Translations under genes and position numbers: made by a program
Assembly (NCBI GenBank): GCA_025356865.1
Contig: JANXQJ010000148.1
Location: 1 to 54,340 of the forward strand
DNA from: Deltaproteobacteria bacterium
GTDB taxonomy: Bacteria > Desulfobacterota > Deferrimicrobia > Deferrimicrobiales > Deferrimicrobiaceae
DNA: 54,340 nt
Reading direction: 5' to 3'
Notes under the pieces: generated by a model
What the model was told of the DNA's origin: nothing
The model's database searches: none
Seen by the model: the letters and a program-made list of their open reading frames with translations, nothing else
Part shown: positions 40,104 to 46,858 of the stretch, one piece after another
Position numbering within the stretch: the first letter of the stretch is position 1
Layout of the letters: each line of letters begins with the position of its first letter

Positions 40104-41225
40104 CTATTTGGCAGGCGCTTCAGCCGGAGCCGGCTCGGGGGCAGGCGCAGGCGCCGGTGCTTCGGCTGCGGGCGTCGCCGGAGCCGCTGCCGGGGCCGGT
40201 TCGGCCGATGGAGCGGGTTCGGGGGCCGGAGCGGGCGCCGGAGCCGCCTTCTTGGCGGCAGCGGCTTCTTCTTCGGCCTTCTTTTTCGCCTCTTCGATGG
40301 CCTTGCGGTCATCCTCGAGTTTTTTCTGCTCTTCGGAGACCTTCTTCTTTTCCATCTCGACCTTCAGCTTGTCCTGGTCGATCTCCTGCTGCTGCTGCTG
40401 GGTCTTGGCTTTTTCGGACTCGAGCGCCGCCTTCTGGAGCTCCATGTCGGACTTGAGCGCCTCGACTTCCTTGGAAGCGCTGTCCTTGATCCCCTTGGCC
40501 TCGGCCTTCGCCTTGTCGAGCTGTTCCTGGATCTTGCCGGTCTCGCCCTTGAGCGCCTTGAGACGGAGCTCTTCCTTCGAGGCCTCGTTCTTGAGATCGG
40601 CGATGATCCCCTTCTTTTCACGGTCGCGCGCCCTGACGACATGGGCGGTCATCGAGTCGCCCAGATAGCGGACCGCCTCGCGGGCCACCTCGATGTCGGT
40701 CTTGCCCTCGGTAACGCCGAACACCTTCCCGACCGTCAGCCCGCCGTAGGCGCTGACGTTGCCGACCCACAGGACGGTGCCGGTCGAGGGATCGACCATG
40801 GCCATGTCCATCGTGACCTGGGATGCCGAATCCTTCTCCTTGCCCTTCCCGTAAAGAAGCAGTTTGCCGTAGAGGATTCCCTGGACGTTCATTTCGTCGC
40901 CGAGTTTCTTGAGAACTTCCTTCTCGAGACTTTCGGTCGAGGTGATCTTGAGCTTTTTCATCGAATCTCGAACGAACCGGGTGTCTTCGACCTCGTCGAA
41001 AATCCCTTCGGAACGCAGCGTGGGAATGAGAAGCGCCTCGATGGAACGCTCGGCCTCCTTGGTATCGGAGTAATTTTCAAACGGGAATACCGCTACCCGC
41101 TTGACTTTCGTGTACTGGTCTTTCGTCTTCGAGGGCAACGCGTTGTCTCTCAGCATCGGGCGGGAACACCCGACTGCGAGCAGCAACAGCGCAAACCCCA
41201 GACCGATCGTCCTCGTGGTACCCAT
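40104..41225 (-). CDS. Lipoprotein: LpoB/DUF799/TolB-N-like alpha-beta domain + long coiled coil + Pro/Ala-rich tail
   Basis: Lipobox LLLAVGC|S. VAVFPFENYSDTKEAE...VQGILYGKL motif typical of that lipoprotein fold. ~150 aa Lys/Glu heptad-like region (…QQQQQEIDQDKLKVEMEKKKVSEEQKKLEDDRKAIEEAKKKAEEE). AAGGAGG lies 6 nt before the ATG at 41223-41225. Confidence 0.7.
   Translation of the reverse strand: MGTTRTIGLGFALLLLAVGCSRPMLRDNALPSKTKDQYTKVKRVAVFPFENYSDTKEAERSIEALLIPTLRSEGIFDEVEDTRFVRDSMKKLKITSTESLEKEVLKKLGDEMNVQGILYGKLLLYGKGKEKDSASQVTMDMAMVDPSTGTVLWVGNVSAYGGLTVGKVFGVTEGKTDIEVAREAVRYLGDSMTAHVVRARDREKKGIIADLKNEASKEELRLKALKGETGKIQEQLDKAKAEAKGIKDSASKEVEALKSDMELQKAALESEKAKTQQQQQEIDQDKLKVEMEKKKVSEEQKKLEDDRKAIEEAKKKAEEEAAAAKKAAPAPAPAPEPAPSAEPAPAAAPATPAAEAPAPAPAPEPAPAEAPAK
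40107..40247 (-). repeat. Low-complexity Pro/Ala(Glu) coding repeat (C-terminal 47 aa of the lipoprotein)
   Basis: AAPAPAPAPEPAPSAEPAPAAAPATPAAEAPAPAPAPEPAPAEAPAK. Confidence 0.7.
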
Positions 41226-41252
41226 CAGCTCCTCCTTGCTCACCTGGCTGGA

Positions 41253-46100: not shown

Positions 46101-46858
46101 GTGAGCGGCGCGGAATGGGAATAGGGGTCGCTCGAATCGCCCGAGTCTTCCTGGCCGTATCCCGGGTGCACGATGATGACCGACGGGATGACATTGGTGC
46201 CGGGGGCCCGGTATCGGGTGAAATCGACGCCGAAAGTGCCATTGTCGAGATAGTTTACCGCCGAGGTGAGCAGCGATTCGACATTGGCGACTGAAACGCC
46301 GGCGATCGACGCGGGTCCGTTGATGGTTGCGCGGAAATTGCCGGTCGTGTCGCCTGCCCCAAGCGTGGGTCGGAGCCATTCGGATGCGAACATCGCCAGG
46401 GGATCGGGTGTGATGTCCGCCGGGGACGCCAGGGCGGAAACGACGAACCTGCCCCTCGATACCTCGGCCCAGTAGTTCTTGAGACTGGGACCGCCCCCGT
46501 AGAGGAGCGCGCCCATCGTGGCTCGGGTCGCGACGGGCGACGCGACGCGGGTAGCGAAATCGATCATCAGCACCAGCGGTCGAACGGCGTTGTCGAGCGG
46601 GGAGATCGCCATTGGGCGCAGCGCGGTGCGTGTTTTCGCCAGATAGGCGGCCGCATAGGGGTATTTCCCGCCTTCGGTTGAAAGGCGGGGCGCGACGGGG
46701 CGAGGGGGGGCTGGCACCCGGGCGCCCGTCGTCCGGTACCGTCCCGTGTATGGGTCGACGAGCCCCGGACGAGGCGGCGGCATTGCGTCGGCGCTCGAAA
46801 TGATGACCGGGATCAGTAACAAAAAAAGAAACAGCCCGTATAATTTCCGAGACGGCAT
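43124..46858 (-). CDS. Exported M6 (immune-inhibitor-A-like) zinc metalloprotease + beta-propeller repeats + Ig-like module + [10 protein letters not shown] / TM C-terminal tail
   Basis: Signal peptide [25 protein letters not shown], with AAGGAG upstream of the ATG at 46856-46858. [13 protein letters not shown] zinc site. Repeats [61 protein letters not shown]. C-terminus [26 protein letters not shown]... followed by a hydrophobic helix and RRF. Confidence 0.85.
   Translation of the reverse strand: [1244 protein letters not shown]

Follow-up and report, generated by a model that had tools for sequence, protein, structure and literature searches.

A large outer-membrane beta-barrel and an outer-membrane lipoprotein with a PelC-like fold, encoded side by side in a Deltaproteobacteria bacterium (Deferrimicrobiaceae; GenBank assembly GCA_025356865.1, contig JANXQJ010000148.1), are an obligate gene pair. 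The conserved companions of this pair are a beta-propeller protein and multi-haem cytochromes, accompanied by redoxins of the cytochrome-maturation type or by chaperones. The window, i.e. the whole stretch of 54,340 nucleotides analysed here, is chromosomal (TopA, Dxs, MetH, and MurI are also encoded), and all genes of the module lie on its minus strand (Table 1). An M6-type zinc metalloprotease with a CFI-box-CTERM domain, whose gene directly precedes that of the barrel, is lineage-specific. With a probability of roughly 0.55, barrel and lipoprotein form one outer-membrane complex that acts as the channel or dock of a multi-haem cytochrome module and not as a protease-specific exporter. This module most likely belongs to a recently recognised kind of cytochrome electron-transfer system.

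Conservation of the gene pair and its companions

A scan of metagenome contigs with the lipoprotein head yielded 56 loci, which were annotated by custom hidden Markov models (HMMs). In all 45 loci with a lipoprotein match at E ≤ 1e-21 and at least 1.9 kb of upstream sequence, a census whose loci are not independent and include several near-duplicates, a barrel homologue is encoded directly upstream of the lipoprotein homologue. This pairing spans GC contents of 33-69%, includes five deep subfamilies of the barrel, and extends down to barrel identities of 13-22%; two apparent misses were artefacts of the assigned starts of open reading frames (ORFs). Six scanned loci without a barrel had the lowest lipoprotein scores and probably represent other members of the PelC/LpoB superfold. 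The initial annotation of this DNA, made from the sequence without database searches, had suggested that barrel and lipoprotein could form a device for export or anchoring, made for the protease "or for the cytochrome", and had named independent occurrence of the two families in other genomes as an observation that would speak against it. Since the pair is intact in 45/45 informative loci, no such independence was found.

Among the pairs with at least 5 kb of downstream sequence, 26 of 28 are accompanied by an NHL-repeat propeller and 24 of 28 by a cytochrome with at least 10 haems, and a SurA-like chaperone is a frequent further companion. These associations favour the aside "or for the cytochrome". 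The protease is present in 12 of the 25 loci that extend at least 5.8 kb upstream, all 12 of which belong to the lineage of the window, and in none of the 13 barrel-lipoprotein loci outside this lineage (0/13). Hence the idea of a dedicated barrel-lipoprotein device is upheld by the pairing, whereas the protease as its dedicated client is not; serving the protease is neither the general nor the ancestral role of the pair.

An exhaustive profile search retrieved only 65 representatives, including full-length barrels at 13-22% identity, which fall into four or five subfamilies. In the distant loci (L017-L023) the lipoprotein heads are homologous throughout (23-36% identity), the helix that follows the head is mostly short, and the protease is encoded in none. 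A set of barrel, lipoprotein, NHL propeller, TlpA-like redoxin, and TlpA-decahaem fusion recurs in L019/L020 (GC 69%), L023 (GC 51%), L024/L025, and L017 (GC 33%); in the last, the lipoprotein has 254 amino acids (aa), a PpiC/SurA-type gene is located between the lipoprotein and NHL genes, and a GGDEF gene follows the fusion. Locus L018 (GC 66%) has the barrel and a lipoprotein with long Lys/Glu/Ala-rich helices and a Pro/Ala tail, and L021/L022 (GC 48%) have ResB, CcsA, barrel, lipoprotein, and NHL genes in this order. The gene upstream of the barrel is unrelated to the protease in L018, L019/L020, L021, and L023. In L021 the barrel is directly preceded by ResB and CcsA, which belong to cytochrome c maturation (L021:7556-9849), and the NHL propeller of this subfamily carries a Pro/Ala/Gln-rich N-terminal linker of ~300 aa.

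Approximately 25 metagenome loci encode a barrel of 550-800 aa together with two or three tandem lipoproteins, a SurA-like protein, a 26-haem and a 16-haem cytochrome, and an NHL protein (26/16-haem loci). The NHL and SurA-like genes of the window are homologous to their counterparts in these loci (phmmer E-values of 1e-8 to 1e-18 for the chaperone gene). An HMM of the diverse barrel alignment A3 matched the barrels of the 26/16-haem loci with E-values of 1e-14 to 1e-26, and hhalign related the barrel alignment A1 to A6, the alignment of these barrels, with 96% probability. In six of the 26/16-haem loci the barrel had been missed by the first-pass HMMs, and one iteration recovered a barrel of 751-797 aa in each; the E-values of the iterated HMM are inflated because related sequences were part of the model, so that the A3 HMM and hhalign provide the independent figures. 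The A6 barrels (e.g. L045:4920-7247) comprise 690-800 aa and contain an inserted domain of ~150 aa ending in ...VTEIEAYG; the window barrel lacks this insert. Between the NHL and barrel genes of the 26/16-haem loci (L028:3096-4757, L040:2774-4432, L052:3868-5493, and L039:1519-3048) lies a conserved ORF of ~550 aa that ends in YGI[AT]M[FI]PY and may code for a second outer-membrane protein.

Close relatives, 48 of the barrel (38-67% identity) and ~100 of the lipoprotein, stem exclusively from metagenomes or from metagenome-assembled genomes (MAGs) named "Deltaproteobacteria bacterium". The single barrel sequence gave no hit when contigs were scanned, alignment A1 gave 8 loci, and a further homologue search with A3 returned the same 48 close relatives without additions. 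Across 16 loci of this lineage the order protease, barrel, lipoprotein, SurA-like chaperone, NHL propeller, TlpA, TlpA-decahaem fusion, and GGDEF protein is kept as far as each contig reaches, and the genes upstream of the protease vary. Identities amount to 53-93% for the lipoprotein head, ~70% for the cytochrome, 38-67% for the barrel, and 32-62% for the protease. One locus (L014) contains the module, but several frameshifts interrupt its genes for the protease, the barrel, the cytochrome, and the GGDEF protein; assembly errors are a likelier cause of these than decay. Three module-bearing NCBI MAG records (P0019, P0074, and P0148) carry the labels "Candidatus Methanoperedens sp." and "Candidatus Methylomirabilis sp."; Methanoperedens is an archaeon, and at least this label probably reflects a binning error.

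It is unlikely that barrel and rod-like lipoprotein are a dedicated device for the export or anchoring of the protease, which in this view would detach from its C-terminal CFI-box anchor and become exposed at the cell surface. Within the lineage, the protease gene does lie directly upstream of the barrel gene in every locus with upstream sequence, and all full-length orthologues retain the HExxH motif and a transmembrane helix with a basic tail, a recognisable CFI box being present in all of them except L010. Barrel and protease are also the fastest evolving proteins of the block (32-67% identity as compared to 53-93% for the lipoprotein head), which fits a joint exposure at the surface. The stop codon of the protease and the start codon of the barrel share the ATGA at 43127-43124, exactly as the initial annotation had stated, but this 4-nt overlap is confined to the window and its closest relatives, L001/L002. 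Elsewhere in the lineage the two genes are separated by gaps of ~20-210 nt, and translational coupling is not conserved. Together with the absence of the protease outside the lineage and the unrelated upstream neighbours, these gaps imply that the pair predates the protease and has another conserved set of partners.

Folds of the barrel and the lipoprotein

The AlphaFold2 model of the barrel, which was built with 48 homologues (pLDDT 86.3), contains 30 long strands according to DSSP. The first strand begins at residue 28, immediately after the signal peptide, and neither a plug nor a periplasmic N-terminal domain is present, the latter in agreement with what had been noticed from the sequence. 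Loops are short on both faces of the barrel (2-13 residues). In the absence of a plug and with such short loops, the wide lumen would have to be filled by a partner protein. In Foldseek searches, the top match was MtrB (6r2q_B, E = 8.5e-11, TM-score 0.41); a chain of the 30-strand SlpA complex of Deinococcus reached a TM-score of 0.42 and TonB-dependent transporters ~0.26. A Pfam scan (E ≤ 0.01) gave only a Porin_4 match below its cut-off (3.1e-5) and no match to MtrB_PioB, and the barrel profile had no match among the sequences of the PDB. On these Pfam results membership in the MtrB/PioB family, which had been considered in the initial annotation alongside a strand count that now comes to ~30, was rejected, as was identity with PelB. 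The annotation had also recorded a lack of two-partner secretion and Slam signatures. This was borne out by the Pfam scan, and identity as a two-partner secretion transporter (TpsB) or Slam protein was rejected, as no Pfam hit pointed to an Omp85-type barrel with POTRA domains or to a DUF560 barrel with an N-terminal TPR domain, and no domain precedes the first strand in the model.

The lipoprotein has a lipobox with Cys20, an alpha/beta head (residues ~40-170), and a single uninterrupted helix (residues 177-311) that spans ~200 Å in the AlphaFold2 model and shows a hydrophobic periodicity of 3.5 residues with register shifts. Its remaining C-terminal part is disordered and Pro/Ala-rich. The tripartite architecture of head, coiled coil, and tail had been recognised correctly, but the coiled coil measures 135 aa and not ~150 aa, and the Pro/Ala tail ~49 aa. 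The helix alone would indeed be long enough to cross the periplasm, as had been suggested. It is missing, however, in most distant families, whose lipoproteins have 243-254 aa, so that the core function does not include bridging the periplasm.

PelC structures are the best Foldseek matches of the head (5t10, 5t11, 5t0z, and 9h80, the last being the PelBC complex; E-values of 1e-9 to ~2e-11, target TM-scores of 0.65-0.81), followed by GNA1162 (0.65), LpoB (0.62), and CsgG (0.39). The matches to the Pfam models GNA1162-like (DUF799; 3.9e-5, 23.7 bits) and LpoB (1.8e-3, 18.6 bits) stay below the respective gathering thresholds of 25.9 and 22.3 bits. The head shares the superfold of these families and is not a member of either by the curated cut-offs. 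By its lipobox cysteine and the Foldseek matches, the protein qualifies as a PelC-fold outer-membrane lipoprotein. Identity as the true PelC of a pel operon was rejected, since neither pel genes nor a TPR-porin of the PelB type were found in the window or in the relatives.

These folds bear on two further explanations. If the barrel served for general diffusion, with the lipoprotein as a spacer towards the peptidoglycan in the manner of Lpp or LpoB, the neighbourhood would merely be inherited synteny. The weak Porin_4 match, the resemblance of the long helix and Pro/Ala tail to Lpp, TonB, or OmpA hinges, and the equally conserved downstream housekeeping synteny (GGDEF, EngB) within the lineage would be in line with such a large porin and envelope tether. 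Nevertheless, an unplugged barrel of ~30 strands would be a lethal leak, most families lack the long helix, and the association with NHL proteins and cytochromes persists at GC contents of 33-69% and among different flanking genes where the housekeeping synteny is lost, which makes this explanation quite unlikely. It is highly improbable that a PelC-like lipoprotein ring funnels a polysaccharide into the barrel, as in a Pel-like exporter: the head is nearest to PelC and variable sugar-modification and glycosyltransferase genes occur upstream of the block in several relatives, but these genes vary by locus and do not belong to the conserved block, the block itself contains no synthase or Pel genes, the barrel has ~30 strands instead of the 16 of PelB and no TPR domain, and the conserved partners are redox proteins.

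Proposed function and comparison with known systems

The genes downstream of the pair code for a chaperone, a propeller, and two redox proteins. The SurA-N-like protein is itself a lipoprotein (lipobox ...LFSGC) with a weak C-terminal match to PpiC-type domains, and the position of its gene is conserved in the lineage of the window. The standalone TlpA/ResA-like redoxin matches the NCBIfam model for ResA with 4.7e-27, below its cut-off. The fusion protein consists of a signal peptide, a TlpA-like domain (CSTC), a beta-sandwich, and a decahaem c-type cytochrome with 10 CXXCH motifs, which matches the NCBIfam DmsE-family decahaem model (1.3e-28, below the cut-off). It is the only multi-haem cytochrome encoded in the window.

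What the data show is the gene pairing, the protein folds, and the association with the companion genes; from these we infer a physical complex with a ring of lipoproteins, a specific lumen-filling protein, and electron transfer. Copies of the lipoprotein head would form a collar around the periplasmic end of the barrel, like PelC on PelB, held there by their lipid anchors. In the lineage of the window, the 20-nm helix and the Pro/Ala tail might serve as an accessory tether towards the peptidoglycan or the inner membrane. The client would be the TlpA-decahaem cytochrome encoded four genes downstream, whose DmsE/MtrA-like haem domain may either be seated in the barrel or pass through it. The complex could be a static conduit of the Mtr kind or a channel for export and anchoring of the Osc kind. 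The SurA-like lipoprotein could chaperone this client, the standalone ResA-like TlpA could keep the cysteines of the apocytochrome reduced, and the NHL propeller might stabilise or adapt the complex. The M6/CFI-box protease would be a later addition in this lineage, either as a second surface client or, by analogy to OzpA and OmcZ, as a processing enzyme.

Among the closest known counterparts is an operon described from SEEP-SRB1, Desulfuromonadales, Anaeromyxobacter, and others, which codes for a 26-haem and a 16-haem cytochrome, a peptidyl-prolyl isomerase (PPIase), and a six-bladed propeller and is surrounded by "proteins of unknown function" (Skennerton 2017, PMC5539420). The metagenomic 26/16-haem loci correspond to the core of this operon. 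In G. sulfurreducens, GSU2495 codes for the 26-haem protein (PMC12977616); this gene is oscI of the osc (omcS-companion) operon. According to PMC13194489, which cites Shen et al. 2025, OscE, OscF, and OscG have been proposed to function in secretion, OscH in folding, and OscD in nanowire morphology. The protein sizes are 701 aa for OscE, 169 aa for OscF (alpha/beta), 367 aa for OscG (alpha/beta), 548 aa for OscH, 627 aa for OscI, and 260 aa for OscK (all-beta; PMC13194489 supplement). The metagenomic 26/16-haem loci unite homologues of five components of the module in the window, namely the barrel, the lipoprotein head, the SurA-like protein, the NHL protein, and the haem domain. Their gene order fits OscE-K, and their protein sizes fit the six values listed. 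OscEFG has reportedly been called "channel-like" by Shen and co-workers. The window has the PPIase-type chaperone and the six-bladed propeller of the osc type, as judged from the SurA_N_3, weak Rotamase_2, and NHL matches (Table 1). It differs by having one lipoprotein with a 135-aa helix and a Pro/Ala tail instead of two or three lipoproteins, and by a TlpA-fused decahaem cytochrome in place of the 26- and 16-haem proteins. An additional TlpA and the 5' M6/CFI-box protease are present, and the OmcS-like hexahaem cytochrome of Geobacter is absent.

With MtrAB and other porin-cytochrome systems (MtrCAB, PioAB, OmaB-OmbB-OmcB, ExtABCD, and Uet) the window shares a very large barrel without plug that is encoded together with a DmsE/MtrA-type decahaem cytochrome, and MtrB is the best structural match of the barrel. 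Unlike these systems, the window barrel has no MtrB_PioB match and ~30 instead of 26 strands, the TM-score is only 0.41, and the decahaem gene is located four genes downstream and fused to a thioredoxin-like domain. The obligate partnership with a PelC-like lipoprotein is a further difference; no such lipoprotein is known to be part of the Mtr or Pcc systems. The uet cluster of Tenderia (UetB/C/H/I/J) resembles the module in uniting a PPIase, a large barrel (UetC, 28 strands), NHL proteins, and CcsAB, and also codes for an undecahaem cytochrome (bioRxiv 10.1101/2022.05.06.490989). Large barrels and propeller lipoproteins are also encoded in the OmcE and OmcS regions (bioRxiv 10.1101/2025.10.22.684050), and NHL proteins of D. 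ferrophilus are co-expressed with outer-membrane cytochromes (PMC5815863).

The proposed collar is modelled on PelC, a lipoprotein whose 12-meric ring is mounted on PelB at the periplasmic rim and held by acyl chains (PMC12141448). Both systems have a lipoprotein head of the same fold (TM-score up to 0.81) encoded beside an outer-membrane barrel. In contrast to PelBC, the sequence similarity of the window lipoprotein to PelC is marginal (E = 0.025-0.04), the lipoprotein has the additional helix and tail, and the barrel is unrelated to PelB, nearly twice as large, and not part of a pel operon. The analogy invoked for the protease is that cleavage of OmcZ by OzpA is required for nanowire assembly (PMC12307469). 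In both cases a secreted protease is encoded beside a cytochrome system, but OzpA is a serine protease and the window protein is an M6 zinc protease with a C-terminal CFI-box anchor.

Several points weigh against a barrel-lipoprotein complex for cytochromes. Four genes and a conserved hairpin separate the barrel gene from the cytochrome gene, and the protease always adjoins the barrel within the lineage of the window, so that a functional link of these two is possible. The polarity of the barrel is very high, including the side that putatively faces the lipids (mean hydropathy 0.16). hhalign ties the barrel to those of the 26/16-haem type only over the N-terminal third (~210 columns), and the barrels and lipoproteins of these loci were equated with OscE/F/G of Geobacter by gene order and size only. 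Moreover, OscE is given as 75.7% "helix" (PMC13194489 supplement), which is at odds with a barrel, and according to PMC5539420 no physiological role is known for the 26/16-haem operon, which is not induced during metal respiration.

Ill-understood large barrels and unknown proteins recur beside multi-haem cytochromes in operons for extracellular electron transfer, and such unassigned genes here gain a fold and a partner. The pair, a plug-less barrel of ~30 strands plus one to three PelC-fold lipoproteins, occurs both in the widespread osc-type 26/16-haem operon and in the TlpA-decahaem type, the latter in MAGs of uncultured "Deltaproteobacteria". A collar as in PelBC, placed on a sheath as in Mtr, would offer a structural model for the mounting or passage of cytochromes at the outer membrane. 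Three features appear to be undescribed, namely that the lipoprotein partner has a PelC fold, that operons of the TlpA-decahaem type exist, and that the protease has been added. The fusion of thioredoxin and cytochrome domains and the CFI-box metalloprotease may be signs of new redox chemistry or of maturation by proteolysis. A more far-reaching proposal, and a rather doubtful one, is that the set of barrel, PelC-like lipoprotein, NHL protein, TlpA, and TlpA-decahaem fusion, which occurs in the window and in four or more further deep lineages, represents an undescribed class of outer-membrane redox machine. In the window's lineage, the 20-nm helices would then span the periplasm as a scaffold, and the role of the M6 protease would be to process the cytochrome or to accompany it.

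Gene layout, protease, and neighbouring genes

Table 1. Genes and features of the module, with their positions in the window.
Feature	Position	Strand	Length	Remarks
M6-type zinc metalloprotease	43124..46858	-	1244 aa	
Protease, signal peptide	46858-46784	-		
Protease, HExxH motif region	45946-45908	-		
Protease, CFI-box-CTERM domain	43483-43283	-		
Protease, transmembrane helix	43252-43187	-		followed by basic tail
Outer-membrane beta-barrel	41253..43127	-	624 aa	C-terminus ...KYNF
Barrel, signal peptide	43127-43053	-		
Outer-membrane lipoprotein	40104..41225	-	373 aa	stop codon at 40104-40106
Lipoprotein, signal peptide	41225-41166	-		
Lipoprotein, alpha/beta head	41108-40716	-		
Lipoprotein, helix	40697-40293	-	135 aa	
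Lipoprotein, disordered C-terminal part	40292-40107	-		
Hairpin	40031..40062	-		between lipoprotein and SurA-like genes
SurA-N-like chaperone lipoprotein	38908..39972	-		Pfam SurA_N_3 9.4e-6; Rotamase_2 5.6e-3
NHL-repeat beta-propeller, secreted	37905..38900	-		Pfam NHL 1.2e-23
TlpA/ResA-like periplasmic thiol:disulfide oxidoreductase (CEPC)	37315..37902	-		Pfam AhpC-TSA 9.5e-24
TlpA-decahaem fusion	35718..37310	-		Pfam Paired_CXXCH_1 1.8e-35; Redoxin 1.7e-16

The barrel gene ends with TAA at 41255-41253, and a spacer of exactly 27 nt with an AAGGAGG located 5 nt ahead of the ATG at 41225 leads to the lipoprotein gene, as the initial annotation had described. Downstream of the lipoprotein stop codon follows a hairpin with a perfect 13-bp stem (GCACCCTTGGCGC-n6-GCGCCAAGGGTGC, 40062-40031); its 3' flank is GTTATTTCG, the tail is GUUAUUUCG, and the U tract is weak. 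A consensus terminator scan of the window did not list this hairpin. It is present at the same position in L001, L003, L006, L008, L012, and L016, where the arms differ in sequence yet remain complementary, and probably serves either for partial termination or for stabilising the mRNA. Although the hairpin had been identified correctly, the module does not end there, because the conserved co-directional block continues for at least four genes, or five if the adjacent GGDEF gene is counted. The window contains no Rfam families and no tRNAs.

The protease is an M6 metalloprotease of the CFI-box-CTERM type by its intact HExxH motif, the Peptidase_M6 model of Pfam (26.7 bits, cut-off 22), and the C-terminal NCBIfam model NF041770 (CFI-box-CTERM; 2e-27, 94.8 bits, cut-off 40). 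The match to TIGR03296 (1e-29, 104.4 bits) is slightly below the cut-off of 110.8, and Reg_prop was also matched; the middle region is propeller-like. The window contains only this one CFI box, and a literature search for "CFI-box-CTERM" found no paper. In L005 (4100-6159), a truncated copy of the protease N-terminus (270 aa) and a PhdYeFM/ParE toxin-antitoxin pair are located just upstream of the full-length protease gene.

On the plus strand, a divergent gene (47043-49517) codes for an 824-aa glycine-rich repeat lipoprotein (MRRKVIVAASLAGAFAMLLAAC...) without Pfam match and with a weak hit to the NCBIfam model "lipo-invert tail"; this gene is not conserved beside the module in the relatives. 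It is followed on the minus strand by the gene of a membrane protein with ~10 transmembrane helices and no Pfam match (49586-51154) and by two radical-SAM genes (51178-52077 and 53127-54263). At the corresponding position, the relatives carry differing sugar-modification, glycosyltransferase, or Big_1/invasin genes.

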